Shown here: one piece after another, positions 1,525 through 20,983 of the stretch
Layout of the letters: the number at the start of each line of letters is the position of its first letter
Position numbering within the stretch: position 1 is the stretch's first letter
Assembly (NCBI GenBank): GCA_028284295.1
Contig: JANQSB010000132.1
Span: 1-38,491 of the forward strand
From: Myxococcota bacterium
Lineage (GTDB): Bacteria; Myxococcota_A; UBA9160; UBA4427
Reading direction: 5' to 3'
Length of the DNA stretch: 38,491 nt
The notes under the pieces: model-generated
What the model was told of the DNA's origin: nothing
Databases searched by the model: none
What the model saw: the letters and a program-made list of their open reading frames with translations, nothing else
Program-made: the position numbers and the translations under genes

Positions 1525-2022
1525 GTGGAGCTCTCAGATCTCGGGGCGATCGGGGAGTTTGTGTCCTCGATCGCAGTCCTCGTCACACTGGTGTTTCTGA
1601 CCATCGAGACCAGAAACAACTCGAAACTTCTTGCGCGATCCAATGCAAGGCAGACGTCGAGTGACCACCGCCGAGCACTTGGCGAGATCCTCGACAAGGA
1701 AGTCTCCGAGCTCTTCCTTCGCGGCAATAGCCGCGGACTCGAATCGCTCACTCCAGAAGAGCGCTATCGATTCGATCTCGCCTACTGCATATGGCTTCAG
1801 TCAATAGAGCAAGCGTATGCGGATTATCGCGATGGTCTCTATCCGGCAGATCATCTCGCAGCCTACGAGAACACGATCCCGGCGTTTCTGAGAACTCCGG
1901 GCGGGTCGCAGTGGTGGGAAGAGCGCCGGATGTGGTTTGGTCACGCCTTCCGCGCCGAAGTCGAGCGACTACTGGAGGCTCCGCCAGAAGATGCTGTCGA
2001 ATCGGGGCCGAAGTCCGCATAA
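1525..2022 (+). CDS. Cassette family A protein (single N-terminal TM, unknown function), copy 1
   Basis: GTG start. Carries ELSDLGAIGEFVSSIAVLVTLVFL..., then a soluble part of ~120 aa ending TPGGSQWWEE...F. It is a paralogue of 9388, 16353 and 20480 and of the fragments at 19278 and 32833. Confidence 0.7.
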   Translation: MELSDLGAIGEFVSSIAVLVTLVFLTIETRNNSKLLARSNARQTSSDHRRALGEILDKEVSELFLRGNSRGLESLTPEERYRFDLAYCIWLQSIEQAYADYRDGLYPADHLAAYENTIPAFLRTPGGSQWWEERRMWFGHAFRAEVERLLEAPPEDAVESGPKSA

Positions 2023-2049
2023 CAAAATGCTGAAGACGCGCGAGGCGCC

Positions 2050-2181
2050 GCCCAACAAGTTGTTGGAGACGGACGTGGCCAAATCTGGGCGTAGGCGGGG
2101 TGCTAGCCTTCTGGCGTCAACCGTTGTTGACGTAGTGAGCCCGGCGGCGCGCCGCGCCGCTCGACAACCGATCCGTTGGGC
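2050..2181 (+). repeat. attC site (132-bp class)
   Basis: R'' GCCCAAC at 2050-2056 and R' GTTGGGC at 2175-2181; GCCGCCCAAC and GTTGGGCGGC are perfectly complementary. The L arms pair with two unpaired A bases in the left arm. GTGCTAGCCT box at 2100-2109, 54 nt from R''. Confidence 0.85.
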
Positions 2182-2225
2182 GGCGGCGCGCGTCCTCGGC
2201 CAGGCTGCGCTCGTCTCTGCTCCGA

Positions 2226-2897
2226 TCATGCCGCGCTCGAGAGGCGGCGCTCCGAGAGTTCTTCGACCAGGCGTACGACATCCGCTTGCGCGGCTGCTAC
2301 GGATCGGCGATGTCGCTCGTCGCCGAACTCCTGGTACTCGATGGCGACGCGGTAGGTCTCACCGACACCGAGATACCTGCTCAACGTGCGCAGGTGCGGG
2401 GTCAAATGGTCCATGCCGGCGCGCAGCCCTCCGGGTGCGAAGCCGAACTCGCCGCTCGACGTGAGTATCACGAGCGATTTGCCTTCCAGGATCGGCTCGA
2501 GCGGCCAGTCGCCACGGCCCAGGTCGAAGGTGAAGGTCTCGTCCACGCGGACGACCTGGTCGACCCACGCCTTCAGCGCGGCTGGCATTCCGTAGTTGTA
2601 CATGGGCGCGGCGATCAGCAGAAGGTCGGCCTGGCGCAGCTCGGCGATCAGCGTGTCGGAGAGCGCGAGGAGGCGCCGCTGCTCCGAACTGCGTTCGGTC
2701 TTCGGGGTGAAGGCCGCGCCGATCCAGGCCTCGGAAACCGCGGGCGGGGGCGCCGAGCCGACATCGCGATGCAGCCATGCATCGTGACGCCAACGAGCCC
2801 GCCACTCGCCGACGAAGCGATCGGCGAGCGCACGCGAGAGCGAGCGCTCCCGGCGAGCACTGGCATCGACCCGAAGAATGGTGAAGTCAGACGACAT
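2226..2897 (-). CDS. azoR: FMN-dependent NADH-azoreductase / flavodoxin-like quinone reductase
   Basis: Starts at MSSDFTILRVDAS with GGGAGG 7 nt upstream. LALSDTLIAELRQADLLLIAAPMYNYGMPAALKAWVDQVVR matches the AzoR family core. Confidence 0.8.
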   Translation of the reverse strand: MSSDFTILRVDASARRERSLSRALADRFVGEWRARWRHDAWLHRDVGSAPPPAVSEAWIGAAFTPKTERSSEQRRLLALSDTLIAELRQADLLLIAAPMYNYGMPAALKAWVDQVVRVDETFTFDLGRGDWPLEPILEGKSLVILTSSGEFGFAPGGLRAGMDHLTPHLRTLSRYLGVGETYRVAIEYQEFGDERHRRSVAAAQADVVRLVEELSERRLSSAA

Positions 2898-2982
2898 CTC
2901 GAGACCTCCCTGTGCCGCAGCCAAAATCAGCTTCTGGGCACAGAATCGGGCTTCCAAGGCCATTCAGGCAAACGAGAAAGCT

Positions 2983-2996
2983 TCATCGACAGATGA
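2983..2996. promoter_or_regulatory. Palindromic candidate LysR operator in the azoR-lysR divergent intergenic region
   Basis: TCATC-GACA-GATGA is a perfect 5-bp inverted repeat, nested in TTCA-N13-TGAA. It lies between divergent starts at 2897 and 3021. Confidence 0.4.
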
Positions 2997-3020
2997 GGTG
3001 AATTCATCTATAAGGCGAGC

Positions 3021-3941
3021 ATGTTCGCCCGCATACCCTCCCCCTCAGCCCTGCGAACCTTCGAGGCCGCCGCCCGGCTCGGTAGTTTCAAGGCCGCCGC
3101 CAAAGAACTCTCCGTGACGCCCACAGCGGTCTCCCACCAGATCCGCACCCTCGAGGAGCACCTGGAAATCCCGCTCTTCGTCCGTCGGACACGTGCCGTA
3201 GCGCTGACCGAGAGCGGCCAGCGGCTCTCCGAGGCAGTGCACCAGGCCTTCCAGCGGATCATGGTGGCGCTCGAAGAGGTCTCGGCAACGGAGACGGTCC
3301 TGAGCGTGAGCACGACGCCTGCGTTTGCTGCCCTCTGGCTCGTGCCCAGGCTGAGCCGTTTCGAAGAGCGTTATCCACAGCTCCGTGTCCAACTGGTCGC
3401 GAGTACGGCCCCAACGGATCTCCAACGGGATCGCGTCGTGGACGTCTCGGTTCGCTACGGCACCGGACCCTATCCGAGCCTTCGTGCTCATGCGCTCGCC
3501 GACGAAACCTTCGGCGCCTATGCCACGCCCGACTACATCCAGCGGCTCGAGCGGTGGGAGGACGCCGAACTGGTCGAGACCGCGTGGCAGCAGCCAGGCT
3601 TCGAGGATGTCTCGTGGGATGCGTGGCTTGCTGCGGCGGGGCTTCCCCGACCTACGAAGCTGAGATCACGACACTTCGATCAAGAGCACTATGTCGTTCA
3701 GGCCGGCTTGGCTTCCCAGGGGCTCGTGCTAGCGAGCTCTCTCCTGGTGGGTGACCTCGTAGCACGCGGATGGCTGGAACCCTATCGCCCCGAGACTCGA
3801 ATAGCGGGTCGCCGATACACGGCGCTTTCTCTGCCCAGCCGCGCCTCGTCGCGGAAGGTCTCGCAATTCCTCGAATGGCTGGAGGAGGAAGCGGCAGGCG
3901 ATGCACCAGTCGGCCGCCGCCCAACAAGGCGCCGCAGCTGA
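3021..3941 (+). CDS. LysR-family transcriptional regulator
   Basis: 306 aa. The N-terminal HTH LRTFEAAARLGSFKAAAKELSVTPTAVSHQIRTLEEHL is followed by a substrate-binding domain. It is divergent from azoR. The last codons and the stop lie inside the following attC. Confidence 0.85.
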   Translation: MFARIPSPSALRTFEAAARLGSFKAAAKELSVTPTAVSHQIRTLEEHLEIPLFVRRTRAVALTESGQRLSEAVHQAFQRIMVALEEVSATETVLSVSTTPAFAALWLVPRLSRFEERYPQLRVQLVASTAPTDLQRDRVVDVSVRYGTGPYPSLRAHALADETFGAYATPDYIQRLERWEDAELVETAWQQPGFEDVSWDAWLAAAGLPRPTKLRSRHFDQEHYVVQAGLASQGLVLASSLLVGDLVARGWLEPYRPETRIAGRRYTALSLPSRASSRKVSQFLEWLEEEAAGDAPVGRRPTRRRS

Positions 3942-4048
3942 CGTGACACAGCGCGTTCCAATCGGAGTCTGGTAGCATTCCGGCATCAACGTGCCTCGGC
4001 GACGGTCGGCGGCCTGTGCCACGCAACTGAGCGCCCAGTCCGTTAGGC
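3919..4048 (+). repeat. attC site (132-bp class)
   Basis: R'' GCCCAAC at 3919-3925 and R' GTTAGGC at 4042-4048. CTGGTAGCAT box at 3969-3978, 54 nt from R''. Confidence 0.85.
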
Positions 4049-4073
4049 TGAACTCACTTGTTCGCAGACACCC

Positions 4074-4154
4074 GCGCAACAAGGAGATCGGTGCGCAGAG
4101 AACCGGGGCCGTGAGTCGGCGCTTCTCCGCCTACCTTCGGGATCTCGAGCGCGG
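4074..4154 (+). repeat. attC remnant / empty cassette
   Basis: R''-like GCGCAAC at 4074-4080 followed by AAGG. The long-class core GCCTACCTTCGGG sits at 4129-4141. There is no right arm and it runs straight into the next attC. Confidence 0.35.
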
Positions 4155-4286
4155 GCCTAACAAGGCCCTCGAGACGGACGCGTCCACGCCTCAGCGCTAG
4201 CAGCGTGCTAGCCTTCTGGCCTCAACCGTTGTTGGAGTTGCGGGCTCGCCGCCGGGCCGCGCCGCTCGACAACGGATCCGTCAGGT
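4155..4286 (+). repeat. attC site (132-bp class)
   Basis: R'' GCCTAAC at 4155-4161 and R' GTCAGGT at 4280-4286. The left L arm CTCGAG-A-CGG-A-CGCG (4168-4182) pairs with CGCCGCTCGA on the right, with two unpaired A bases. GTGCTAGCCT box at 4205-4214. The core is near-identical to the site at 2050. Confidence 0.8.
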
Positions 4287-4308
4287 GGCGGTGCTTTCCT
4301 TGTCGTCG

Positions 4309-4821
4309 GTGCTCCCCGAACAAGAGCTGCTCTCGACCATCGCAGAGATGGGTATCGGGATCGTTGGCTTCGCGGTCGTCGCCGACATCCTTCGCTCCCG
4401 TTCTACCAGCGACGTGGTGCGGCTGTACAATCTTCGAGACGTCGCCGAGATCGGCCTGATGATCGCGGTCCTGAGTGTCTTCCCTTCCATGCTTCACGGC
4501 CTCGGGCTCTCGGCCGAGGCCAGCTGGCGCACGACGGGCGGCGGCGTTCTGGTCTGGACTGGGATCGGCGTCGCCAGCTCGTTCCGCAGGCGGGGGCCGG
4601 CATCTCTGGTCGGCGCTGCCAGAAGCAATCGGCTCGTCTCGGTCATCGTCTACATGCTGATCGGGCTCAACCTGGCACTTGCGTTCTCGAACCTGGTTGG
4701 CGCGGGTCCATCTTCTGGAGCTCGACACGTGGCGTGGGCGCTGTCGGCGCTCGGTCAAGCCGGAACCATGTTCATATCGTCGGTGTTCAGTCGTTCAGCC
4801 GAGGTGCCCGCTACCCAATAG
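4309..4821 (+). CDS. Cassette family B protein (multi-pass membrane, unknown function), copy 1
   Basis: The GTG at 4309 gives VLPEQELLSTIAEMGIGIVGFAVV, the same N-terminal length as the paralogues. An alternative GTG at 4285 lies inside attC R'. About 5 predicted TM segments. Confidence 0.65.
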   Translation: MLPEQELLSTIAEMGIGIVGFAVVADILRSRSTSDVVRLYNLRDVAEIGLMIAVLSVFPSMLHGLGLSAEASWRTTGGGVLVWTGIGVASSFRRRGPASLVGAARSNRLVSVIVYMLIGLNLALAFSNLVGAGPSSGARHVAWALSALGQAGTMFISSVFSRSAEVPATQ

Positions 4822-4929
4822 ACCGTTGCAGTGGCCTGCTGCTCAGGTGGCCTACCGAGGCGTGGTAGAATCGCGACGTCCATGTTGTTTCGTCTACGTG
4901 CAGGCCGCCGCAAGTCCGGTCTGTGAGGC
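4813..4929 (+). repeat. attC site (degenerate boxes)
   Basis: CCCAATAGACCGTTGCAGTGGCCTGC (4814-4839) is complementary to GCAGGCCGCCGCAAGTCCGGTCTGTGAGG (4900-4928). The boxes are ACCCAAT and GTGAGGC. GTGGTAGAAT box at 4862-4871. Confidence 0.55.
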
Positions 4930-4953
4930 GGCACGAAGAAATCGGAGGGTGCG

Positions 4954-5328
4954 ATGGACCTCGGCGAACATCTCCTCTGCCTCGACGTAGAGAACCTCGA
5001 AGCCTCGCTCGATTTCTACACGAAGCTCGGCTTCCGTCTCACCGAGGATCATCGACCCAAGCGATGGGCCGTGGTCGCCCATAGCAATCTCGTCGTGTGC
5101 CTGTTCGAAGGAATCGAAGAGAACCTCATGAACTTTCGAGGTGGCGACATCAGCGCGATCCAAGAGGAGGCGGTCGCGAACGGCCTCGACTTCACGAAGC
5201 CCGCTAAGCAGCACCCAGATGGCTCCTGGAACGCCACGATCCATGATCCCGATGGGAATGCGATCTTCTTCAACACCTTCCCCGATGAGCGAGAGCGCTA
5301 CGCCAGGACTGGCAGCATCGCCGACTAG
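4954..5328 (+). CDS. VOC (glyoxalase/bleomycin-resistance/dioxygenase fold) protein
   Basis: 124 aa. LCLDVENLEASLDFYTKLGFRL...IHDPDGNAIFF is the typical VOC motif pair. GGAGGG lies upstream of the ATG. Confidence 0.8.
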   Translation: MDLGEHLLCLDVENLEASLDFYTKLGFRLTEDHRPKRWAVVAHSNLVVCLFEGIEENLMNFRGGDISAIQEEAVANGLDFTKPAKQHPDGSWNATIHDPDGNAIFFNTFPDERERYARTGSIAD

Positions 5329-5334
5329 CGCGAT

Positions 5335-5496
5335 GCCTGACATCGGTGATGCAGCGTTCCAGCGCCGTCCGGTGGGCACTGGGGCAGTGCTGCCTGCCTG
5401 GGCTACGCCCATCAGCCGGCTCGGCTACCTTCGGCGCCTGGTGGCCCATTCACCTTCGACTCGGGCGCTCGCAGCTGGGTGCCGTATCCGTTGGGC
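5335..5496 (+). repeat. attC site (long class, 162 bp)
   Basis: R'' GCCTGAC at 5335-5341 and R' GTTGGGC at 5490-5496. The core ACGCCCATCAGCCGGCTCGGCTACCTT...GGGCGCTCGCAGCTG is shared with the site at 498. Confidence 0.75.
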
Positions 5497-5511
5497 TTCA
5501 GGCACAGCGGA

Positions 5512-6042
5512 GTGAGCCTTCCCCAGACGCTCGAGACCAGTCGGCTCAGGCTGCGCCCGTTCGCGGAATCGGATGGCCCAGCAGTCCTCGACTACTCGCA
5601 GGACGCCGATTGGGCGGAGTACCAGCAGACGACGCCAGCGTCCGAGAGGGAGGCAGAGCGTGTCGTCGCCGAGCTTCGACTTCGCGACTGGGAGAGTCAA
5701 CCTGCCTGGGCAATCACTCGCTCGGGCCAGGTGATCGGTCTCGTCAGCCTCGTCTTCCGTGCCGAGTACCGGATCGCTTCTCTCGGATACGGGATTCATC
5801 GGGATCACCGGGGTCTGGGGCTCACCGGAGAGGCGATTCGAGCGATCCTTGCCGAGGCCTTCGCCGCCCATCCGGAGCTTGCGAGGGTCACGGCGAACAC
5901 CGATGCGAGAAATCACAGCTCGAGTCGCTTGCTCGAGAAGCTCGGCTTCACCCTGGAAGGGACTCTTCGGTCGGGTGCGCTGACCGCCAAGGGCGAGCTT
6001 GTGGACGGCGCCATCTATGGGCTCCTCCGGTCTGAATGGTAG
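5512..6042 (+). CDS. GNAT N-acetyltransferase (RimJ/RimL-like)
   Basis: The GTG at 5512 is the first start after attC R'. LETSRLRLRPFAESD...GYGIHRDHRGLGLTGEAIRAIL...ARNHSSSRLLEKLGF is the Acetyltransf_3-type pattern. Confidence 0.8.
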   Translation: MSLPQTLETSRLRLRPFAESDGPAVLDYSQDADWAEYQQTTPASEREAERVVAELRLRDWESQPAWAITRSGQVIGLVSLVFRAEYRIASLGYGIHRDHRGLGLTGEAIRAILAEAFAAHPELARVTANTDARNHSSSRLLEKLGFTLEGTLRSGALTAKGELVDGAIYGLLRSEW

Positions 6043-6228
6043 GCCGCCCCGGCAGAGGACAGAGACTGCGATCGCGGAGCTACGCCGCGATGTGGGCCTG
6101 TCCCGAAGCGAGTTCATCGAAGCGGTCGAGCCGAATCGAGAGGCCTTCGTATCCAGCTGTTCCGGAGTCGCGGATGGCGCTCCTGACGGAGTGGCTCCCC
6201 ATCGACGGTCCGAGCTAGGCCACCCCCC

Positions 6229-6391
6229 GCCCGACGATCGAGCAGCCTTGCTCACGGTCGATGCCGGGTGGGGCGTGGCAGCCTCTGCCTCCTGGCCCGG
6301 TCCGACCGGCGCCTGTGGCATCATCGGGTCCCGAGCCGAGCGCTCATCGCGCTTCCAGGGTGGGAGTAGCCGAGCGCCCGATCCACCAGGC
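6229..6391 (+). repeat. attC-like site (degenerate)
   Basis: Starts with GCCCGAC (6229-6235), carries a central GTGGCATCAT box (6315-6324), and ends GATCCACCAGGCGGCG (compare GATCCGTCAGGCAGCG at 7823). Confidence 0.45.
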
Positions 6392-6401
6392 GGCGTGGCG
6401 C

Positions 6402-6773
6402 GTGGAGATCCGCACCAAGCGAATCTACGAAGAGCCCAGCTCGTCCGACGGTGTTCGGGTTCTGATCGACAGGCTCTGGCCTCGCGGAGTCTCCAAGGAC
6501 GCCGCCGCCATCGACTTCTGGGCCAAAGCCGTGGCCCCCTCGAACGAGTTGAGAGTCTGGTACGGGCACGATCCCACCAAGTGGCCCGAGTTTCGCCGGC
6601 GCTACTTCGCGGAGCTCGACGCGAACCCCGAGGGCGTGGCCGAGGTCGAGTCCCGGATCGACGGCGTCACTGCGACTCTGGTCTTCAGCTCGAAGGAGGA
6701 GCGAATGAACAACGCCTCCGCGTTTCGCGACTATCTCGAGCGGCGCAGATCGATCCGCCGGGCGGCGCGATGA
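6402..6773 (+). CDS. DUF488-family protein
   Basis: GTG start just after the attC. VRVLIDRLWPRGVSKDAAAIDFWAKAVAPSNELRVWYGHDPTKWPEFRRRY is the DUF488 signature. Confidence 0.75.
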   Translation: MEIRTKRIYEEPSSSDGVRVLIDRLWPRGVSKDAAAIDFWAKAVAPSNELRVWYGHDPTKWPEFRRRYFAELDANPEGVAEVESRIDGVTATLVFSSKEERMNNASAFRDYLERRRSIRRAAR

Positions 6774-7240
6774 GTGGCTTCGAGATCCGCGAGGCCCTTC
6801 CCTCGGATCGCGACGCCATCCTCTCCTTCGACCACGTGTTTCAGGCCGATCCGGGCCGGGCGTCGTTCATCGACAGAGCGCTCCGCACGGCGACTTGTCT
6901 CGTTGCGGACCGCAACGGTCGGGCAGTCGCCTATGGGGTCCTCGAATACACCTTCTTCGGAAACGGGTTCGTCTCCATGGTGTACGTCGCCGAGGCGCAC
7001 AGGCGGAGGGGCATGGGTCGCGCTCTACTGGTGGCCCTCGCGGATCGATGCACCACAGAGAAGCTGTTCACATCCACGAATCGCTCGAACGAGTCGATGC
7101 AGTCGCTCCTCGGGACCCTCGGATACGTCCCGAGCGGCTCGATCGAGAACCTGGACCCAGGCGATCCCGAGCTCGTCTACTTCCTCGATCTGCGCGGCTG
7201 TGCATCGATCGGGGTGGCAGAGCCTACGCTCCCGACCTGA
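6770..7240 (+). CDS. GNAT N-acetyltransferase
   Basis: Its ATG overlaps the DUF488 stop (ATGA). VYVAEAHRRRGMGRALLVAL is the acetyl-CoA binding motif. Confidence 0.75.
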   Translation: MSGFEIREALPSDRDAILSFDHVFQADPGRASFIDRALRTATCLVADRNGRAVAYGVLEYTFFGNGFVSMVYVAEAHRRRGMGRALLVALADRCTTEKLFTSTNRSNESMQSLLGTLGYVPSGSIENLDPGDPELVYFLDLRGCASIGVAEPTLPT

Positions 7241-7649
7241 CGCCGTACAGAGTCACGGGCTCGATACGATAGGTTCGCGCCGTGCCGTCCTGGAAGCTCG
7301 AACTGCGGTCGGCAACGAACCACTCGGGTGGGTCCGGAAACGCCCGTTGCAGCTGGGCGAGGACACGCTCTTCCGGCTCACGGATGCTGAAGCGGCCTTC
7401 GCCATGCACGCTTTCCCACTCGTAGACACCATCCGAGAGGCTCGTGTCTACCTGGAAGCCGACGCGCGAATCCTGCGCGGCCAGCTCGCTCTTTCGCCCG
7501 GGTGAAGTGATTCCCACGAGGCACCCGTCGAGGTAGGTGCACCCCAGCGTGATCACGTACGGGACTTCCGAGACGAACGCCACCCTCACGAGCTCTGCAC
7601 GTTTCAGCACCGCCTCGATCTCGTCCCGACCGAGCTGCGTCTCGGGCAT
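7224..7649 (-). CDS. Pyridoxamine 5'-phosphate oxidase-family (FMN-binding split-barrel) protein
   Basis: Starts at MPETQLGRDEIEAVLKRAELVRVAF with GGAGGA upstream. It is convergent with the GNAT gene and overlaps it by 17 nt. Confidence 0.7.
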   Translation of the reverse strand: MPETQLGRDEIEAVLKRAELVRVAFVSEVPYVITLGCTYLDGCLVGITSPGRKSELAAQDSRVGFQVDTSLSDGVYEWESVHGEGRFSIREPEERVLAQLQRAFPDPPEWFVADRSSSFQDGTARTYRIEPVTLYGVRSGA

Positions 7650-7701
7650 CGCGTCCTCCTGCCAAGGGCATCCGAGCGACGATGGTCGCGAATGCAACGT
7701 T

Positions 7702-7833
7702 GCCTAACAAGTCGTTTCGGTAGAGGTGCTCCAGCTGCGCCGAGCCCGACCGTGGTACAATCGAGTCCGTACCAGGCGTTCCCGCGGCGCTGCGGCAGAT
7801 CGCCGCGCTCCGCCGAACCGCGATCCGTCAGGC
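7702..7833 (+). repeat. attC site (132-bp class)
   Basis: R'' GCCTAAC at 7702-7708 and R' GTCAGGC at 7827-7833. Arms TTTCGG... and ...CCGAACCG are complementary. GTGGTACAAT box at 7752-7761, 54 nt from R''. Confidence 0.8.
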
Positions 7834-7851
7834 AGCGCGAGGTCGAGGGAC

Positions 7852-8472
7852 ATGGAGTGGTATTCCGGCCAGTTCATGATCTTCTTCGCGACGATCGATC
7901 CCGTGAGCACCCTCGCCCTGTTCGTGGGGCTCACGGCCAGGGTCTCGGCACGAGACCGTAGGAGGGTCGCGTTTCGGTCGGTCGGATACTCCGCCGCGAT
8001 TCTGGTGGCATTCGTCCTCGTTGGGCAACTCCTCCTCGGTTCGCTGGGCATCCGGCTCGCCTCGTTCCAGCTCGCGGGCGGCATCATCTTCTTCCTGTTC
8101 GGCGTCCAGATGGTGTTCGGGTCGGGGGCCGCAGCCTCCAGCGAAGGCCCCGAGGCCGAGCACGACATTGCGGTCTTTCCGCTTGCAGTGCCATCCATGG
8201 CCAGTCCCGGGTCCATCCTCGCTGCCGTGGTTCTCACCGACAACCGGGAGTTCACCGTCGCCGAGCAAGCCGTCTCCACCCTTCTCCTGCTGGCCGTGCT
8301 CGGCATCACCCTGGTCCTCCTGCTCCAGGCGAATCGGATCTACAGCCTGATCGGGAACGCGGGATCCACACTGCTGGTGCGGATTCTGGGCCTGGTTCTC
8401 GCGGCACTCGCAGTCGAGATGGTCCTCGAGGCAGGCAGCGAGCTCCTGCTCGAGATGCGCGCTGCCCAGTGA
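7852..8472 (+). CDS. MarC-family (UPF0056) integral membrane protein
   Basis: 206 aa. FATIDPVSTLALFVGLT...DIAVFPLAVPSMASPGSI are typical MarC motifs. Confidence 0.8.
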   Translation: MEWYSGQFMIFFATIDPVSTLALFVGLTARVSARDRRRVAFRSVGYSAAILVAFVLVGQLLLGSLGIRLASFQLAGGIIFFLFGVQMVFGSGAAASSEGPEAEHDIAVFPLAVPSMASPGSILAAVVLTDNREFTVAEQAVSTLLLLAVLGITLVLLLQANRIYSLIGNAGSTLLVRILGLVLAALAVEMVLEAGSELLLEMRAAQ

Positions 8473-8599
8473 CGACACGCCGCAGCTGACCGTTCCCCGC
8501 TCTTCCCGATCGACCTGCTCTACCCTCCGGACGTCGAAGCGGGTACCTCCGGCTGCCCGGCCGGTCCGGCCGGAAGCCGAGGGGATCGCGTCGCCAGGC
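8467..8599 (+). repeat. attC site (132-bp class geometry, degenerate boxes)
   Basis: CAGTGAC (8467-8473) includes the stop codon. A TACCCT box at 8521-8526 lies exactly 54 nt downstream. The site ends GTCGCCAGGCAG (8590-8601). Confidence 0.55.
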
Positions 8600-8618
8600 A
8601 GTAGAGGTCCCATGCATC

Positions 8619-9203
8619 GTGGTTTCGTTACGAAGGCCGTCTGACTCCGAGATCCACGGGGTGCTCGGTGCCCGAGCCGAGTTCACCTATCCCGAAGTGG
8701 GCGCGACCGCCAAGCTCGCAGAGGGCCGGTCCGAGCCCGGTCTCGCCACCACCTACGACGTGGATCATCACCGCTTCCCGCTCGGCCTGGGGCGCCCTCT
8801 CTACGAGCGCGCGTGCGCTGCACTCATCGCATGGCGGCATTTCGAGATCCCGTGGCTGAAGCTCTGCGGGGGGCGTCCGGTCTCGCCTGGCCAGGTCGTG
8901 GCTACCCTCCTCCCCATCGCCGGCCTCTGGTTCCTGAACCCGTGCCGGGTCGTCTATGCGGAGCTCCAGCCCGGGGCCGACGCCGCAGCCTTCGCCTACG
9001 GCACTCTCCCCGGCCACCCGGAATGCGGGGAAGAGCGCTTCTCCGTCATCTACGACCCTGCGTCCGATCGCGTGCTCTACGAGATCACCGTGTTCTCGCG
9101 CCCAGGGCGGCTCTTCTCACGGGTCGGCTACCCGTTCGCTCGCCGGCTGCAGCGCAGCTTCGTGGCTGCGTCCGCCGCGGCTCTGGCGGAGGCTGCTACC
9201 TGA
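8619..9203 (+). CDS. DUF1990-family protein
   Basis: GTG start. Carries LRRPSDSEIHGVLGARAEFTYPEVGAT...AFAYGTLPGHPECGEERFSV, the DUF1990-type motifs. Confidence 0.6.
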   Translation: MVSLRRPSDSEIHGVLGARAEFTYPEVGATAKLAEGRSEPGLATTYDVDHHRFPLGLGRPLYERACAALIAWRHFEIPWLKLCGGRPVSPGQVVATLLPIAGLWFLNPCRVVYAELQPGADAAAFAYGTLPGHPECGEERFSVIYDPASDRVLYEITVFSRPGRLFSRVGYPFARRLQRSFVAASAAALAEAAT

Positions 9204-9368
9204 CATCGGCGTTGCTGCGGCCGCGGCGACGCCTAACAAGGCGTCGCGGCGGGCAGGGTCATCGCCCGGCATCGCTGTCGGTCGGCTCGTGCGATCCGAC
9301 GGCGTCCGTTCTGGTATCCTCGCGACTCAACCAGCGGCGTTCGCGGCCGAACGCCGCTGCTGTCAGGC
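9198..9368 (+). repeat. attC site with duplicated R'' (ACCTGAC and GCCTAAC)
   Basis: ACCTGAC at 9198-9204 contains the stop codon, and there is a second GCCTAAC at 9231-9237. R' GTCAGGC lies at 9362-9368. ATCGGCGTTGCTGCGGCCGCG is complementary to CGCGGCCGAACGCCGCTGCT. CTGGTATCCT box at 9311-9320. Confidence 0.7.
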
Positions 9369-9387: not shown

Positions 9388-9873
9388 GTGGTGAACTGGG
9401 ACGCGCTCGGGGCGATCGCGGAACTGCTCGGCGCTCTGGGCGTGGTCGTGACACTCGCGTACCTCGCCCTTCAGATCCGTCGCAGCAACATCCTCGCGGT
9501 GGCGGAGTCGCACCGGTACTCCAATCAGGTGGCCGCGGCGAGCATTCTCGCGGTCGTACAAGACGGAGAAGTGGCGAAGATATTCAGGGAGGGGCTGGTC
9601 GATCGCGCCGGTCTGGCCGCCGACGATCTGACTCGCTTCGACATGCTTCTCAGCAGTCTCGTCGGCGCCTTGTCGGCTTCCATCATGGACCAGATGACAC
9701 TGGGAATCTACGGAGACGACAGGATCTCCGACCAGAGATCCTCGCTACGGATGATCCTGTCGACTCCGGGTGGAGCGGCTTGGTGGAGTCTCCACCGCGA
9801 GAGCTACCCTAGCGCGTTCCAGAGATTCGTCGCCGAGGAAGCCGCCGATCCGGAGCCGCCCGCCGAACGATGA
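9388..9873 (+). CDS. Cassette family A protein, copy 2
   Basis: GTG start (9388 or 9391) after GGGAGG. Carries VNWDALGAIAELLGALGVVVTLAYLALQIRRSN...TPGGAAWW. Its stop overlaps the next ATG (ATGA at 9870). Confidence 0.7.
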   Translation: MVNWDALGAIAELLGALGVVVTLAYLALQIRRSNILAVAESHRYSNQVAAASILAVVQDGEVAKIFREGLVDRAGLAADDLTRFDMLLSSLVGALSASIMDQMTLGIYGDDRISDQRSSLRMILSTPGGAAWWSLHRESYPSAFQRFVAEEAADPEPPAER

Positions 9874-10907
9874 GAGCTGTCGTCTACCACCAGCACGGTT
9901 CGACCGACGAACTCGTCGTCGAGGACCTTCCCGAGCCGCAACTTCGCCCCGGCGACGCGCTCATCGAGGTCGGCGCCGCATCCCTGAACGGCTTCGACCC
10001 GATGATGCTCGCCGGGAGTACCTCGCTCGAGACACCGCTTCCCATGGTCCCATGCGGGGACTTCGCGGGCCGGATCCTCGCGTTCGCGGAGGGTTCCGAC
10101 CCGGGCCCGTGGAAGGAAGGAGATCGGGTCTGCCCGCATCCGTTCGTGCTCGGAGAGGGGATGACCGGCGAGACACGCGTCGGTGCAGCCTGCGAGCGGG
10201 TCCGGATCCCGATCCCGAACCTGATCGCGATCCCGGACGGGGTAAGCGACGTACAGGCAGCCAGCCTGCCGATCGCCTACGGCACCGCCTATCGGATGAT
10301 GATCACGCGCGGAGAAGTCAGGGCCGGGGAGACGGTGCTCGTCCTCGGCGCGACCGGGGGCGTCGGCACCGGCTGTGTCCAACTGGCCAAGAGCCTCGGC
10401 GCAACCGTGATCGCCACCGGTAGCTCGGAGGCGAAGCTCGACGCACTGCGGGATCTCGGGGCCGACCACGTGATCGACAACAAGCAGGACGACTGGGTCC
10501 GCGCCGTTCACGAGATCGCCGGCAAGCCTCGGATGCTCGGATCCGGTGGCGTCGACGTCGTGATCAACTACATCGGTGGGGAGACCTGGGCGGAGTCACT
10601 CCGCTGCTTGCGGTCCGACGGACGGATGTTGACCTGCGGCGCGACGATCGGCTTCAATCCGCCGACCGACATCCGCTACATCTGGACCTACGAGCAGCGC
10701 ATCATCGGCTCGAACGGCTGGACGCCAGACGAGCAGCGCAAGCTCCTCGAGCGCGTCGCCGCAGGCGACCTCGCCCCCGTCATCGACTCCGTCGTGTCCC
10801 TCGAAGGCGCCAGGAGTGCCATGGACGCACTCATCGACCGCCGTGTCTTCGGGAAGGTGGTCATCGAACCCGCGCTCGGGCCGAGGTCTGGTAGCCTCTG
10901 CAAGTGA
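9870..10907 (+). CDS. Zinc-type alcohol dehydrogenase / quinone oxidoreductase (MDR superfamily)
   Basis: 345 aa. GETVLVLGATGGVGTGCVQLAKSLGATVIATGSS is a Rossmann motif, and the N-terminus is GroES-like. The C-terminal tail runs into attC-like sequence. Confidence 0.85.
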   Translation: MRAVVYHQHGSTDELVVEDLPEPQLRPGDALIEVGAASLNGFDPMMLAGSTSLETPLPMVPCGDFAGRILAFAEGSDPGPWKEGDRVCPHPFVLGEGMTGETRVGAACERVRIPIPNLIAIPDGVSDVQAASLPIAYGTAYRMMITRGEVRAGETVLVLGATGGVGTGCVQLAKSLGATVIATGSSEAKLDALRDLGADHVIDNKQDDWVRAVHEIAGKPRMLGSGGVDVVINYIGGETWAESLRCLRSDGRMLTCGATIGFNPPTDIRYIWTYEQRIIGSNGWTPDEQRKLLERVAAGDLAPVIDSVVSLEGARSAMDALIDRRVFGKVVIEPALGPRSGSLCK

Positions 10908-11469: not shown

Positions 11470-11499
11470 GCCTGACACAGGTGCTGCAGTTCGTTGGGC
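11470..11499 (+). repeat. Collapsed attC (R'' and R' only)
   Basis: GCCTGAC (11470-11476), 16 nt, then GTTGGGC (11493-11499). The central ~100 nt seen in the other sites are missing. Confidence 0.4.
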
Positions 11500-11500: not shown

Positions 11501-11548
11501 GAAGGAGCGAGAGAAGGAACGAGAGAGGGAGTGAGAGAAGGAGCGAGA
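11501..11548 (+). repeat. Four tandem 12-nt purine repeats
   Basis: GAAGGAGCGAGA / GAAGGAACGAGA / GAGGGAGTGAGA / GAAGGAGCGAGA, ending 1 nt before the ATG at 11550. Confidence 0.9.
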
Positions 11549-11549
11549 G

Positions 11550-15862: not shown

Positions 15863-16263
15863 TGCTCCTCGTCTGCTACCGGCTCGCGCTGGTCGCGAAT
15901 CTCTGCCTGCTCGGAGTCGGCTTCTCGAATCCGAGCTGGCTCGAGCCTGCGCTGCCAGAGTCCGTCCGGGCGTATCTCGAATCGACGCCCGAGCCCGGTG
16001 CGGCGCTCCTCGGGGTCATGTTCCTCGCCCTTCTCTGTTACGTCGCGGGATGTGTGGGTGCACTCTGGTTCTGGCGACCGAGTCGCCATCTGTTCGCCAG
16101 CAGCGTGATCGCGATGATCCTGCTCAACCCGGCGCTGGGCCCGAGTATCGACCCGGGCTGGAAGGACCTGCTCGAAGAAGCGGGGACACTGCTCGACGGG
16201 ATGCTCGTCTGCGCCATGTTCGCAAGCCCGCTGCGGGACCGGTTCGGAGCGTCTGCGGCCTAA
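15862..16263 (+). CDS. Hypothetical membrane protein
   Basis: Its ATG overlaps the previous stop (TGATG). 133 aa with 3-4 hydrophobic segments. Its stop TAA lies inside GCCTAAC. Confidence 0.55.
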   Translation: MLLVCYRLALVANLCLLGVGFSNPSWLEPALPESVRAYLESTPEPGAALLGVMFLALLCYVAGCVGALWFWRPSRHLFASSVIAMILLNPALGPSIDPGWKDLLEEAGTLLDGMLVCAMFASPLRDRFGASAA

Positions 16264-16346
16264 CATCGGCGCCTGCAACAGCCGTGCGAGACAATGGCCC
16301 TGTGCGCGAACGGGTCTTCCACCTCGCGGTCGGGTCGTGGTAGCCT
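16258..16346 (+). repeat. attC left arm plus central box (no right arm)
   Basis: R'' GCCTAAC at 16258-16264, followed by ATCGGCGCC. The GTGGTAGCCT box at 16337-16346 is followed 6 nt later by the next ATG. Confidence 0.45.
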
Positions 16347-16352
16347 GGGGTC

Positions 16353-16826
16353 ATGACGATTCAGGATCTCGGTAGCCTCGGAGAGCTGATCGCTGCCGTC
16401 GCCACGGTTGCAACGCTGATCTATCTCGCCGCCCAGATCCGCCAGAATACGTCGACGGTTCGCTCGAGCAGTGCGGCGGCGCAGAACCAGAACCAGAACA
16501 CCCTCCTTCTCAGTCTCGCGCAGGACCCGGAGCTCAACCGGATCTTCTGGGCGGGCCTGGAGGCTCGGAGCCGGCTGGAAGCCGCGGAGCAGCGCCGATT
16601 CGATGCCATCATGGCTGCGATGCTGAACAACTACGAGCAGACCTGGCGCTTCTTCAACGAACGCACCATCGAGGAGGGCGCCTGGTTGGGCCAGCTCGAC
16701 TCGATCCGCTGGTTCGTCGCGCAGCCCGGCTTCGAGGAGTACTGGACGAAGTGGAGCAACATGGTCTCGCATGACTTCGCCGAGGTCCTGATGGACGCCA
16801 GCCGGTCCGGGAGCGGCTCGGCCTGA
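16353..16826 (+). CDS. Cassette family A protein, copy 3
   Basis: Carries MTIQDLGSLGELIAAVATVATLIYLAAQIRQNT...QPGFEEYW. The stop TGA lies inside GCCTGAC (16821-16827). Confidence 0.75.
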   Translation: MTIQDLGSLGELIAAVATVATLIYLAAQIRQNTSTVRSSSAAAQNQNQNTLLLSLAQDPELNRIFWAGLEARSRLEAAEQRRFDAIMAAMLNNYEQTWRFFNERTIEEGAWLGQLDSIRWFVAQPGFEEYWTKWSNMVSHDFAEVLMDASRSGSGSA

Positions 16827-16868
16827 CGTGGGCGCGGCTGCCGCCGAGCGCCGGTCCCGCTAGTCGGC

Positions 16869-17122: not shown

Positions 17123-17683
17123 ATGACGCTATTCGAGTACGTCGCGATCGCCTTCTCGCTCGTCTTCTCCTTCAGCGCCATGCGGCTCCTGTCGGGTCTT
17201 CCCTATGCGATCCGCCCGGGCAAGCGCTACTGGGTTCATCTCGCGTTCGTCCTGATCCATCTCCTTGGCACCTCGCTGAGCTTCTGGGCCTTCTGGGGGC
17301 TTCGGGACACGGACTGGACGCTGCCGAAGTTCCTTCTGGTCCTCGGTTCGCCCGGTGCGGTCTTCTTCATCTCGTGTGCGCTCGTACCAGAGTCCCCCTC
17401 CGCCATCACGTCCTGGCGGAGCCACTACTTCGCGACGAGGCGTTCGTTCTTCCTCGGACTGATCGTCTGGGCTCTGGTCGGCAGCGGGGTGACGACCTTC
17501 GTCGCGGGCCTTCCCTGGCTCCATCCCGTACGAGCCAGTCAGGCCTTCCTTCTCCTGCTCGGTGCGCTCGGAATGTCCTTCGCCAGCCCGCGAGCACACG
17601 CCGCACTCGCGTTGGGTGTCATCGCCGCGCTGGCAGTCATTGCGTCGACCGTCTACTTCCAACCCGTGTCCATCCCTCGATGA
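17123..17683 (+). CDS. Hypothetical multi-pass membrane protein
   Basis: 186 aa with ~6 hydrophobic segments. Its stop overlaps the next ATG (ATGA). Confidence 0.6.
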   Translation: MTLFEYVAIAFSLVFSFSAMRLLSGLPYAIRPGKRYWVHLAFVLIHLLGTSLSFWAFWGLRDTDWTLPKFLLVLGSPGAVFFISCALVPESPSAITSWRSHYFATRRSFFLGLIVWALVGSGVTTFVAGLPWLHPVRASQAFLLLLGALGMSFASPRAHAALALGVIAALAVIASTVYFQPVSIPR

Positions 17684-18213
17684 CAGCTGCGGACGCACTG
17701 CCGACGATCGCCGAGATTGCCGTCACCCTGGCGGGCTTCAGCAGCCTCCTCGTCGTGTTTCGCCCGACCGCCACGTCCCGGTGGACCGAACACGAGCTGG
17801 TCCGGATCCGTGCGCTCATCACGACCTGTGTCGTGGTGCTCGTCTGCGCCCTGGTCCCGTTCGGACTCGCCGGGCTGCGCTTCTCCGACGACGTGAGCTT
17901 CGGAGTTCCGCTCGCGGCATACGGGCTCTTCAATCTCGTATACCTGACGCTCAACGTGAGAAAGATCATGTCTCAGAAGATCCGGGTCTCGGCCCCTCGG
18001 TTGACCCTACCGGTCCTCGCGATCTCGGCAGCGGTCAACCTCGTGGTGCTCTCGAGTGGACTCGGGATCTTCCTTCCCTTCGATCCAGGAGTCCTGGTGC
18101 CCGGCCTCGTGTGGGGACTGGTGGCCGCGGTCGTCACCCTTCTGGCGACGGTGACCTTCCTCACGCAGTCCGCGGCCGACGACCGGGAAGACGTCGAAGC
18201 CGGTCCGAGATAG
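17680..18213 (+). CDS. Cassette family B protein, copy 3
   Basis: Carries MTAADALPTIAEIAVTLAGFSSLLVVF. It is translationally coupled to 17123..17683. Confidence 0.7.
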   Translation: MTAADALPTIAEIAVTLAGFSSLLVVFRPTATSRWTEHELVRIRALITTCVVVLVCALVPFGLAGLRFSDDVSFGVPLAAYGLFNLVYLTLNVRKIMSQKIRVSAPRLTLPVLAISAAVNLVVLSSGLGIFLPFDPGVLVPGLVWGLVAAVVTLLATVTFLTQSAADDREDVEAGPR

Positions 18214-18335: not shown

Positions 18336-18366
18336 CGGTAGCCCCCCTGCGGTTCGGGAGCGGGGC

Positions 18367-19143
18367 GTGTCGCCTGGCAGCCTTCGGCTGTCACGAGTCC
18401 TTGCGGGGTCGCTCGCGGTCGCCGTCACCGTTTCGACCTGGGAGCCTTTCGGCTCCGGCTTCCTCATCGGCCACGGCCCCTCCTTCCGCCGCACTCTGAT
18501 CGTGATGGTGTGGCTCGCGGCCTTCTCGGCGTCCTTTCCGCGCCGCATGGGTTCCGTGCCGTCCCAGGGAGTGTGGGCGGCATCGTGGATCGTGCTGCTC
18601 CCGTTGGCTCTGTTCTGCTGGTGGCGCTACGCGGATGCCTGAGGTTCACGACGAGGCCCGAAGGGTCCGGCCGCCAGGCGGCAGCCGTTGAGCGGGCTCA
18701 CCTATGCGCAGTACCTGGCGAGGCGCGGCCTATCGGGCCAGGCTTCCACGCGAGAGGTGCTGCTGGGCCCGTGGTCCGCACCGGGCTTCCACCTGTTCTG
18801 GCGCCGCTGGAATCCGCACCTCGGGTACCTGCTCTTCCGCACCTATGTGGCCCTGGGCGGCGGCCGCCACCACGCGCTCTCTTCTCTCGTCGTCTTCCTC
18901 CTCGCCGGCGCGGCCCATGACCTCGTGGTCCCGCTTCTCACCGGCTTCCCGTCGATCGGCGTGACGGTCGCGTTCGGCTTCTATTGGGCCGCGAGCAACG
19001 GCTGCCGCATCGCCGGGAGCTTCGCCCGCTTCCGAAGGTGGCCGAAGTCCGCCTGCGTGTCGCTCAACCTGGCTCTGGTCGGGGCCGGTCTCGCTCTCGG
19101 CGGAGTGGCGCAGCACGCCTTCCTTGCCCGTATCGCTGCCTAA
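18367..19143 (+). pseudogene. MBOAT_2 / wax-synthase-like membrane acyltransferase interrupted by an in-frame TGA
   Basis: ORFs 18367..18642 and 18688..19143 are in the same frame and separated only by the TGA at 18640-18642. The downstream part carries PWSAPGFHLFWRRWNPHLGYLLFRTYV, the MBOAT FWRRWN motif. Confidence 0.5.
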
Positions 19144-19261
19144 CATTCTCGGGAAGAGCGCCCCCCGGCATGTGGGGAGGCATCGCGGCACCGACGCGTC
19201 GCGGTTCGCAGCGCCCGCAGCCTGCGGTACCCTCCCCGTGCGATTCACTCTCGATCCAGGC
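19138..19261 (+). repeat. attC site (long-class left arm)
   Basis: R'' GCCTAAC at 19138-19144 holds the stop TAA. TACCCT box at 19228-19233. The site ends GATCCAGGCGG (R'-like TCCAGGC at 19255-19261). Confidence 0.55.
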
Positions 19262-19277
19262 GGAGTGGCTGTCCCTC

Positions 19278-19520
19278 TTGAGCCTGCAAGACCTCGGTAG
19301 CATCGGCGAGCTCATCGGCGCGTTCGCCGTCGTCGTCTCGCTCGTGTACCTGTCGTCCCAGATTCGCCAGAACACGAGGCAGATCGACGAGAACACCAGG
19401 GCCGCGCAGGCCGCCGCCTCCGATTCCAGCATCCGCCACGCCTTCGTGGCGCGACGGATGATCATCGAGAACGAGGACGCCTCGCCCACGGCGATCCGAG
19501 CTTGCGTCGGGGGCATCTAG
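19278..19520 (+). pseudogene. Cassette family A gene, 3'-truncated (80 aa)
   Basis: TTG start. SLQDLGSIGELIGAFAVVVSLVYLSSQIRQNT is intact, but the ORF stops at about half the family length, at TAGCCGTGTCGGA. Confidence 0.6.
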
Positions 19521-19536
19521 CCGTGTCGGACCAGCG

Positions 19537-20316
19537 ATGACCCAGCTGACCGGACGAAACGGAATCTCGATCGGGTTCGAGACCTTCGGCTCGGGTCCGC
19601 CCCTGGTGCTCGTCCACGGTGCGTTCACGAACCGCGTGTCCAACTGGATCACCGTTCGGGACGGGCTGGGTGCGCGCTTCACCGTCCACGCCGTGGACCG
19701 ACGCGGTCGTGGGGAGAGCTCCTCCGAGCCCGCGAGCTCGACTCGTGATGAATTCGATGACCTGGCCATGGTGATCTCTTCGGTGGAAGAGCCGGCCTTC
19801 GTGCTCGGACACTCGTACGGTGCCCACGTTGCGCTGGGGGCCGCGTCGCGGGTACCCGAGAAGGTGCGGAAGCTGATTCTCTACGAGCCTCCCACGGCGA
19901 GCTCGCTCTCGGCCGAGACGGCGCGTGCTCTCGAGAACGATGCCCACCGTGCCGATTGGGACGCTTTCGTCGCCCGCTTCTTCCGCGAGGTGGCCCAGGC
20001 TTCCACCGAAGAGCTCGACGAGCTTCGGAGCTCGCCGATCTGGGGAATGCTCGTCGATGGAGCGAAGCCGACGGTTTCGGACATTCGTGCGCTCCGCAGC
20101 TACGACTTCGATCCGCAGGAGTTCCGTTCCCTGGCCGTTCCCGTGACCTTCCTGTGCGGAAGCGAGAGCCCGACGATTCAGTCCGTGACGACGGACGAGC
20201 TGATGGCGACGCTCCCGGATGCCACCCGGATCGAGCTCGAGGGGCAGGGGCACGACGGGATGTATCGCAACCCGCGGCAGTTCATCGATACGGTGGAGCG
20301 GGTCTTCGGGTCGTAG
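19537..20316 (+). CDS. Alpha/beta-fold hydrolase
   Basis: 259 aa. PPLVLVHGAF forms the oxyanion region, VLGHSYGA is the nucleophile elbow GxSxG, and there is a C-terminal GHD. Confidence 0.85.
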   Translation: MTQLTGRNGISIGFETFGSGPPLVLVHGAFTNRVSNWITVRDGLGARFTVHAVDRRGRGESSSEPASSTRDEFDDLAMVISSVEEPAFVLGHSYGAHVALGAASRVPEKVRKLILYEPPTASSLSAETARALENDAHRADWDAFVARFFREVAQASTEELDELRSSPIWGMLVDGAKPTVSDIRALRSYDFDPQEFRSLAVPVTFLCGSESPTIQSVTTDELMATLPDATRIELEGQGHDGMYRNPRQFIDTVERVFGS

Positions 20317-20320
20317 CCGT

Positions 20321-20429
20321 GTCGAAGCATCGGCTCGATTGACCGGGGTCGCCGTCTGGCGGCATACTGCCGGCTCGGGTCGCACCCAGTCACCGCGATC
20401 GCTGGCCGCGGAGCGCCGATCCGTTCCGC
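20321..20429 (+). repeat. attC site (TTGACC-N18-CATAMT class)
   Basis: Starts with GTCGAAG (20321-20327). The left arm CATCGGCTCG is complementary to CGGAGCGCCGAT on the right. R' GTTCCGC at 20423-20429. Confidence 0.55.
20339..20368 (+). promoter_or_regulatory. Sigma70-like promoter inside attC
   Basis: TTGACC (20339-20344), 18 nt, then CATACT (20363-20368), reading toward the family A gene at 20480. Confidence 0.5.
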
Positions 20430-20479
20430 CGGTCGGCCGTGCAGGCGCGAACACTCACCCTGGAAAGGCACCCTCTCCG

Positions 20480-20983
20480 ATGACGAACAAGCGCAGCGGG
20501 TTGGAGCAGGCCGCTCTCGTCGCGGAGATCCTGGGTGGGATCGCGGTGGTCGTCTCGGTGATCTACCTGGCGGTGCAGATCTCCGACAACACCCGCATCC
20601 TCCGCAGTCAGACGCACTACAGCGCTCTCGAGGCACTGCAGAGGCCCTTCGAGATGATGCTCGAGAGCGACTCGCTGGCCGAGCAGCTCGTCGCGTGTCG
20701 CGAGGCACCGCACGGTGTCGCGGAAGCCGTGTGGAGACGCTGCCGGAACTACTACTTCATGCAGGCGAACGGCTGGGAGTACACCTACTACCAGCATCTC
20801 GACGAGGCCCTGCCGCCGTCGCTCTGGCCCGGCGTGGACGGATACATGGGCGGTCAGGCCCGGACCAATCCGGGCTGGGTGCGCTTCTGGGAGGAGATGG
20901 CCGACGGCTTCGGCGAGCCCTTCCGTTCGTACATCGAGGAGCGGATCCGGGAGAACCCGGCGCACGGCCAGCCGCGCGAGTAG
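20480..20983 (+). CDS. Cassette family A protein, copy 4 (divergent)
   Basis: Carries LEQAALVAEILGGIAVVVSVIYLAVQISDNT...NPGWVRFWEEMADGFGEPF, which preserves the TM, the QI(R/S)xN motif and the PGxxxxW features. Confidence 0.7.
   Translation: MTNKRSGLEQAALVAEILGGIAVVVSVIYLAVQISDNTRILRSQTHYSALEALQRPFEMMLESDSLAEQLVACREAPHGVAEAVWRRCRNYYFMQANGWEYTYYQHLDEALPPSLWPGVDGYMGGQARTNPGWVRFWEEMADGFGEPFRSYIEERIRENPAHGQPRE

Follow-up and report, generated by a model that had tools for sequence, protein, structure and literature searches.

Family A, an uncharacterised family of small membrane proteins, is present as four full-length genes and two gene fragments in a 38,491-nt stretch of DNA from a Myxococcota bacterium (GenBank assembly GCA_028284295.1, contig JANQSB010000132.1; the whole stretch is referred to as the window), and several described systems can be set beside it. 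The Pfam domain of unknown function (DUF) DUF6082 (PF19560) is similar in length and has the same order, a hydrophobic helix at the N-terminus and then a helical domain. Its model was presumably built mostly on actinobacterial sequences, and in our literature search no paper mentioned the name. DUF4760 likewise denotes small proteins whose N-terminus forms a transmembrane helix, and UniRef gives this name to protein P0349 of Candidatus Litorirhabdus singularis. Proteins of the Pf3-coat type span the membrane once, in N-out/C-in orientation, and are inserted by YidC. They share with family A a short acidic N-terminal tail, the lack of a signal peptide and positive charges past the helix, a likeness that is a topological analogy only. 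Among Vibrio cholerae cassettes of unknown function that were tested, ~18% were anti-phage, and one of these, Brigantia, has a transmembrane domain only (bioRxiv 10.1101/2024.07.02.601686). Like a family A gene, Brigantia is one small gene in a sedentary chromosomal integron cassette, its product having a transmembrane segment and lacking any known domain.

Each of these likenesses has its limit. The window copies fall below the DUF6082 cut-off, and the integron-borne clade is far larger than the DUF6082 model captures. The DUF4760 model is matched neither by the window copies nor by P0349 or 56 further homologues. Family A is multi-copy, spread across phyla and without a match to any defence model, unlike Brigantia, to which it is likened by description and not by sequence; it also bears a 120-aa cytoplasmic domain that the Pf3-coat type lacks. 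The window copies are outlying members of a catalogued but unstudied DUF superfamily, carried as cassettes, and what is new for family A is its scale, its multi-copy recurrence in the arrays of many phyla and a design that joins a frozen anchor to a variable domain. The pieces found in the window are the following.

1525..2022, + strand, family A copy A1: 165 aa, profile E 2e-43; complete single-gene cassette.
9388..9873, + strand, family A copy A2: 161 aa, profile E 3e-41; first gene of a fused two-gene cassette.
16353..16826, + strand, family A copy A3: 157 aa, profile E 3e-64; closest to the consensus.
20480..20983, + strand, family A copy A4: 167 aa, profile E 1e-35; most divergent, no attC adjoining.
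19278..19520, + strand, family A N-terminal remnant (fifth gene): 80-aa open reading frame (ORF), homology over residues 2-51, E 1.5e-17.
32833..32973, + strand, family A N-terminal remnant (sixth gene): 46 aa, anchor only, profile positions 1-42, E 1e-17.

A profile hidden Markov model (HMM) built from the 56 homologues recovered these six pieces, and no others, from all six-frame ORFs of the window. The translations agree with the four full-length copies and two N-terminal fragments described in a first-pass annotation of this DNA, and the grouping of these into a single uncharacterised family of single-pass membrane proteins is confirmed. The motifs then listed as shared, xxDLG(A/S)(I/L)GE, YLAxQIRxN and PGxxxxW...F, correspond to conserved columns of the family. 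A1-A4 are only 23-29% identical to one another (BLASTP, E 1e-6 to 2e-15), in keeping with the earlier view that they are divergent and not recent duplicates. The nearest relative of each copy lies in a foreign genome and not elsewhere in the window: A1 has a relative with 66% identity in locus L074 and A2 one with 47% in L050, and A3 shares 70% identity with an L001 cassette that has attC at either end and 88% with one metagenome protein. Because each copy is closer to one in another genome than to its neighbours, the four genes were acquired separately, and they represent four subfamilies. The idea of six captures is thereby upheld for A1-A4, which are independent acquisitions, and not for the two fragments, which are deletion remnants rather than separately captured short genes. 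The start codon of A2 is GTG, preceded by the Shine-Dalgarno motif GGGAGG.

The 363 word-indexed homologues of A3 are all unnamed or annotated as "hypothetical". An exhaustive profile search found family A in 17,914 clusters at 50% identity with E ≤ 1e-3 and in 9,534 at 1e-10, with nearly all cluster members 150-175 aa long and aligned from end to end. No window copy passed a Pfam or NCBIfam cut-off. A3 matched DUF6082 with 15.5 bits (E 0.013), below the gathering cut-off of 26.7 bits; A1, A2, A4 and both fragments gave no match to this model at E ≤ 1, and 10 of the 56 homologues matched it at E ≤ 0.01. One protein, P0066, passes the DUF6082 cut-off (35.4 compared with 26.7 bits, over residues 3-131) and is also homologous to A3 (E 1.8e-18, 97% coverage), and therefore links family A to DUF6082 at the superfamily level. 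Judged from these profile matches, the two are distant relatives. The resemblance to DUF4760 mentioned in the first-pass annotation was not borne out, as this model was matched by none of the six window pieces at E ≤ 1 and by none of the 56 homologues at E ≤ 0.01, and P0349, labelled DUF4760 in UniRef, has no match to it in the 2025 Pfam at E ≤ 1. We found no relatives in IMG/VR, no tblastn match in GenBank phages, no match in a PDB sequence search and a single weak match in the plasmid collection.

AlphaFold2 models of A3 and A4 have mean predicted local distance difference test (pLDDT) values of 93.1 and 92.2, respectively, and the same helix order, with one long N-terminal helix (residues 3-57 or 3-62) and five further helices after it. 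Conservation was calculated from 188 copies from about 80 loci. The median pairwise identity is 48% in the first 33 residues and 17% in the remainder, the N-terminal value carrying the caveat that the loci were collected by N-terminal peptide patterns, with most copies found later by the full profile. Since 64% of the identical N-terminal residues are encoded by different codons, the constraint acts on the protein, and conservation of the 5' end at the DNA level is ruled out by the same figure. Mean hydropathy is high over positions 12-27, and the net charge is -2.05 for the N-flank and +1.82 for the C-flank, the C-flank being the more positive in 100% of the 188 sequences. The acidic N-flank together with the positive C-flank predicts an N-out/C-in orientation, and family A is strongly predicted to be a single-pass inner-membrane protein of this topology, ~155-170 aa in length. 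The anchor is conserved at G7 (89%), G10 (81%), E11 (91%), T21 (84%), L22 (95%), Y24 (94%), Q28 (97%) and R30 (86%), and its helix has small-xxx-small spacing involving G7, G10, G14/A15, A17 and T21.

Past residue 36 the conserved columns are R37, G68, L75, E79, R82, F83, G104, P125, G126, W131 and F142. The soluble domain thus conserves turn glycines and a proline, core aromatics and the E79/R82 pair, with no catalytic-looking set of residues, and is strongly predicted to be non-catalytic, its conserved positions being structural; the surface of this domain differs between subfamilies. In close pairs the ratio of nonsynonymous to synonymous substitution rates (dN/dS) is ~0.11 for both the N-terminal part and the remainder, indicating that the subfamilies are stably maintained and not racing. 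The selectable function supposed in the first-pass annotation finds support here, as family A is kept by selection. Spurious ORFs in high-GC DNA were excluded by the profile E-values, the dN/dS of ~0.11 and the pLDDT values above 92.

In an occurrence survey of 77 loci from GTDB species representatives, family A recurs in at least seven phylum-level groups. Its hosts belong to the Myxococcota or "Deltaproteobacteria", the Halieaceae and other Pseudomonadales, Pseudohongiella, Gemmatimonadota, Spirochaetes, Verrucomicrobiota, Marinimicrobia, Burkholderiales and Flavobacteriales. As many as 11 full copies lie within 20 kb (L075 and L083), Ca. Litorirhabdus singularis carries nine copies behind an integron integrase, and IntI is found beside family A arrays in L001, L030 and L074. 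A covariance model of attC trained on 41 attC sites gave 176 matches in these loci, and all but one (175) are on the family A strand. Nineteen of the 41 family A copies with attC on at least one side have attC on either side, the start codon lying 7-20 nt past R' and the stop, TAA, within R''. In a core-motif test both cores were present around 41 of 211 genes, compared with 0.6% at random positions. The covariance model favors three attC classes and fails to detect the arrays in L030, L075, L080 and L084, where attC of other classes are visible by eye. Weighing against the cassette association, about half of the loci examined have no attC cores beside any family A copy, and L011, L012, L043, L051, L053, L086, L088 and L089 are clear non-integron settings. 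Family A is strongly but not exclusively cassette-borne, and the link to integron cassettes first proposed for the window extends well beyond it.

Near relatives are found in different phyla, as seen for L054 (Flavobacteriales) and L032 (Gammaproteobacteria), which are 83% identical, and for a pair from Verrucomicrobiota and "Deltaproteobacteria" (73%). Such near-identical subfamilies in different phyla point to horizontal cassette transfer. Subfamilies spanning phyla at 73-86% amino-acid identity include, besides L054/L032, L021 compared with L039, L070, L073 and L046, and synonymous sites are saturated or nearly so in the cross-phylum pairs. A further Myxococcota metagenome-assembled genome (MAG), GCA_028285625.1 (L004/L019), has its own, different array with four family A copies; sequencing run SRR20820731 is the source of both this MAG array and the window sequence pieces (L006-L008). 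The common run and the G+C content make a Myxococcota-like bacterium of that sample the probable host of the window.

As to function, we tentatively favor a self-sufficient protective role at the inner membrane, a reading that we regard as plausible while stopping short of calling it probable. The 33-residue N-terminus would be a signal-anchor made up of an acidic N-tail, a hydrophobic helix (approximately residues 6-27) and then QIRxN as stop-transfer, and the remaining ~120 residues would form a cytoplasmic five-helix bundle. The conserved helix may pack against itself in a homo-oligomer or dock onto a conserved membrane partner, and the subfamily-specific cytoplasmic bundle may serve as a non-enzymatic binding or sensing module, so that each paralogue would confer a different specificity on the same membrane-level action. 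The protective role, which we infer, would be of the exclusion, abortive-infection or immunity type. That the protein acts on its own is indicated by the 19 genes flanked by attC, by the heterogeneity of the downstream genes and by the lack of informative domain fusions, the longer database proteins being read-through of attC sequence or two tandem copies. Many specificities are suggested by the up to 11 copies per 20 kb and by each window copy being closer to a foreign copy. The anti-phage cassettes of V. cholerae, including the transmembrane-only Brigantia, provide a precedent for a protective role. We would place a protective sensor or exclusion protein first, a membrane, stress or ligand-binding accessory second and an orphan immunity protein third.

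Several observations weigh against the protective reading. None of the searches made links family A to any function by homology: PADLOC-DB 2.0 gave 0 families at E ≤ 1 for the four full-length copies, PHROGs gave only matches with E > 0.2, and Foldseek with the AlphaFold2 models found nothing at E < 1e-3 in PDB or BFVD. The dN/dS of ~0.1 bears no gross arms-race signature, and the neighbouring cassettes are mostly of the detoxification type (GFA, glyoxalase, glutathione S-transferase (GST), GNAT and methyltransferases) and are not defence genes. Sequence patterns are the sole basis for the oligomerisation and topology proposed here. In addition, two anchor-only ORFs persist in the window and, if these are expressed, the helix alone is unlikely to be a lethal pore.

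The anchor-only remnants also bear on whether family A could be a membrane toxin that stabilises the array by addiction, with the conserved helix as its toxic part. Integron arrays are stabilised by toxin-antitoxin cassettes, a BrnT/BrnA pair is present at 661-1277, and a conserved transmembrane helix with small-xxx-small motifs would suit such a toxin. The persistence of the remnants, the lack of an antitoxin partner, the tolerance of up to 11 copies per locus and the purifying selection on the 120-aa soluble domain make this explanation highly improbable. A bolder form of the protective reading, which we consider unlikely, is a widespread and so far overlooked single-gene sensor-effector whose near-invariant, glycine-zipper-like helix assembles into a membrane-depolarising oligomer once the subfamily-specific bundle binds a phage or toxin trigger, the integrons stockpiling specificities. 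If it were true, the chromosomal integrons of Myxococcota, Halieaceae, Gemmatimonadota, Verrucomicrobiota and further groups would hold dozens of specificities of one modular abortive-infection family.

The division into a near-frozen anchor and a diversified cytoplasmic domain is a testable design. Most sedentary chromosomal integron cassettes are without an assigned function, and family A is unusually tractable among them, being a single gene that fills its cassette, with a confident fold, purifying selection and recurrence in many groups. One solved member would annotate a large share of the environmental cassette pool, and even an ordinary outcome, such as a stress protein, would clear a large block of "hypothetical" cassettes.

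The diversity of the paralogues can also be read in terms of orphan immunity, in which each subfamily neutralises another variant of a polymorphic toxin at or beneath the inner membrane and the arrays store immunities. Recombinase-associated acquired interbacterial defence gene clusters in Bacteroidales reportedly store immunities in this way (Ross and colleagues, 2019). In favor of such a store are the numerous divergent paralogues within an array, with purifying selection on each, the stand-alone genes with no partner, the non-catalytic bundle with its variable surface and the subfamilies common to several phyla, such as the 83% identical L054/L032 pair. A toxin gene is linked to family A in none of the ~80 loci, however, and the structure searches revealed no resemblance to known immunity folds. 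It is also left unexplained why the anchor should be far more conserved than the domain that would bind the toxin. We therefore give this explanation a small chance, below that of the protective role we favor.

The genes next to family A bear on two further explanations. The neighbours that adjoin the family A pieces in the window are as follows.

9870..10907, + strand, zinc-type medium-chain dehydrogenase/reductase (MDR) dehydrogenase: Pfam ADH_zinc_N E 3e-28 and ADH_N E 3.6e-10; translationally coupled to A2.
19537..20316, + strand, alpha/beta hydrolase: Pfam Abhydrolase_6 E 1e-22; fused behind the remnant with a 16-nt gap.
32981..33469, + strand, family B multi-pass membrane protein gene: 7 nt past the 32833-32973 remnant.

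The overlap noticed earlier between A2 and the MDR gene is real, with the A2 stop and the MDR start sharing ATGA, and the fragments do lie directly upstream of the hydrolase and family B genes. Family A could accordingly be imagined as a membrane-docking subunit for an enzyme encoded directly downstream (an MDR or short-chain dehydrogenase/reductase (SDR) oxidoreductase or a hydrolase), since a homologue in L088 also overlaps an SDR gene by 4 nt and the 19278 remnant precedes a hydrolase. Among the 34 genes that start -4 to +45 nt from a family A stop, no family occurs more than twice; they encode GFA, GNATs, SDR, MDR, hydrolase, NUDIX, SnoaL, cytochrome c, glycosyltransferase, family B and family A proteins. 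Clustering of all ORFs in the loci revealed no family that specifically adjoins family A, and no adjoining gene is conserved beside singleton copies in Halieaceae. Because the downstream genes are so heterogeneous, the A2-MDR arrangement is a fused-cassette junction and not a conserved functional pair. A conserved MDR/SDR enzyme partner is largely refuted, and with 19 of the 41 attC-associated copies being single-gene cassettes a docking subunit is the least probable of the explanations considered.

The content of the neighbouring cassettes would fit an accessory function in membrane homeostasis, stress or small-molecule binding within the xenobiotic and detoxification repertoire that is dominant in these arrays; the ligand of the helical bundle would then be lipophilic and bound at the inner leaflet. 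Cassettes for GFA, glyoxalase, GST, MAPEG, DoxX, SnoaL, methyltransferases, GNATs and hydrolases surround family A, the non-integron copy in L088 lies in an operon-like run with oxidoreductases, a GST and an enoyl-CoA hydratase, and the selection on family A is purifying. There are no evident conserved ligand- or metal-binding residues, however, the downstream partners are heterogeneous, and the retention of as many as 11 divergent copies within 20 kb is hard to explain in this way. We consider the accessory function rather unlikely, and the protective role remains the reading that we prefer.

How the fragments arose can be traced by comparison with other loci. Window positions 32832-32957, containing the family A 5' end, align to L049 5008-5133, and positions 32980-33177, containing family B, align to L049 5636-5833. 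The two aligned blocks are separated by 503 nt in L049 compared with 23 nt in the window, so that ~480 bp, comprising the whole soluble domain, have been deleted at the 32833 remnant. The 19537 hydrolase gene has 74% nucleotide identity to L062 6664-7426, where it is a cassette of its own directly after an attC, so that a deletion has taken the C-terminal half of the 19278 gene together with its attC. From these alignments both N-terminal fragments are best described as deletion remnants.

The recombination sites of the window were located with the same covariance model, after a regular-expression and arm-complementarity finder had been dropped as too insensitive or too noisy.

498-666, attC, covariance model.
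1293..1456, + strand, attC upstream of A1: 51 bits, E 3e-11; R'' GCCCAAC, R' GTTGGGC.
2050..2181, + strand, attC closing the A1 cassette: 67.5 bits, E 2e-15.
3919-4048, attC, covariance model.
4155-4286, attC, covariance model.
5335-5496, attC, covariance model.
7702-7833, attC, covariance model.
8471-8592, attC, covariance model.
9231..9368, + strand, attC upstream of A2: 47.8 bits, E 2e-10; R' is the variant GTCAGGC.
11470-11499, attC remnant, covariance model.
16258..16352, + strand, truncated attC, R'' half only: R'' GCCTAAC; ends in TGGTAGCCT, 6 nt before the A3 start.
19138..19277, + strand, degenerate attC, R'' half: R'' GCCTAAC at 19138; precedes the 19278 fragment.

A1 starts 68 nt after the end of the upstream attC (1456), and the next attC begins 28 nt past its stop; with attC in the same orientation on both sides, A1 is an integron gene cassette. 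For A2 the sole attC lies upstream, and the gene is fused to the one that comes after it. An R'' half-site precedes A3 and another the 19278 fragment, and no attC could be recognised beside A4 or the 32833 fragment. The covariance model recovered no full attC at the 16258 and 19138 half-sites and no attC at all beyond 11.5 kb. The sites form a gradient of decay, with nine at 498-9368, the remnant at 11470-11499, the half-sites at 16258 and 19138 and none farther right. To the right of this zone the genes are 7-50 nt apart and packed as fused cassettes. The window as a whole has 62-73% G+C and is a run of small, mostly co-directional genes. A phmmer search with the L001 IntI as query found no integron integrase in the window, which may not reach that far; a complete integron, with integrase and attI next to the array, is not seen in the window. 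The left quarter of the window is a textbook cassette array, and in the rest attC have been lost or halved. The cassette-array setting proposed for the window is thus supported by the nine attC and the complete A1 cassette, and beyond ~11.5 kb it is not marked by intact attC, which are absent or degenerate there.

An attC class of ~130 nt carries the sequence TGnTAnnnT, which resembles an extended -10 promoter element. The carriers in the window are the attC at 1293-1456, 2050-2181, 3919-4048, 4155-4286, 7702-7833 and 9231-9368 and the half-sites at 16258 and 19138; elsewhere it is carried in L001, L014, L018, L034, L037 and L072. Its position is fixed at nt 51 from R'' (interquartile range 50-51), on the cassette-coding strand and directed into the next cassette. 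The motif is present in 68 of 150 attC sites, compared with 4 on the opposite strand and 9 expected from shuffles. Within single arrays it marks all 8 sites of L034 and 12 of the 15 of L014. Ahead of A3 the motif (TGGTAGCCT) stops 6 nt before the ATG, a spacing that suggests a leaderless A3 transcript. A literature search returned promoters in cassettes as known and nothing obvious on a conserved -10 element embedded in attC.

Also uncharacterised is a second cassette family, family B, whose products are multi-pass membrane proteins of ~165 aa with the N-terminus xxLxxIAEIAVALAGF. It has six copies in the window (4285-4821, ~10980-11456, ~17680-18213, ~24430-24948, 30538-31038 and 32981-33469), forms a cluster of 42 members in 24 related loci and has no Pfam match. 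The 5' ends of families A and B were grouped by a DNA repeat search, and a common N-terminal module was excluded by hhalign (probability 0.8%). A third recurrent family of membrane-protein cassettes is represented at 17123-17683 by a protein of 186 aa that starts MTLFEYVAI... and has no Pfam match; this family has 10 members in 9 loci. The 12 members of a fourth family, of ~123 aa, are spread over 6 loci, and none is in the window.

Between two attC, at 661-1277, the window contains a reverse-oriented cassette on the - strand that encodes the BrnT toxin (966-1277) and the BrnA antitoxin (661-969), the arrangement usual for stabilising toxin-antitoxin cassettes of chromosomal integrons. At the right end, a GST gene (35221-36471) and an enoyl-CoA hydratase gene on the minus strand (37189-37893) are found, and this end of the window may be ordinary chromosome. 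A tandem 12-nt repeat of ~5 units resembling GAAGGAGCGAGA occupies 11501-11560, right after the attC remnant at 11470-11499, and extends into the start of the ORF at 11550-11915.

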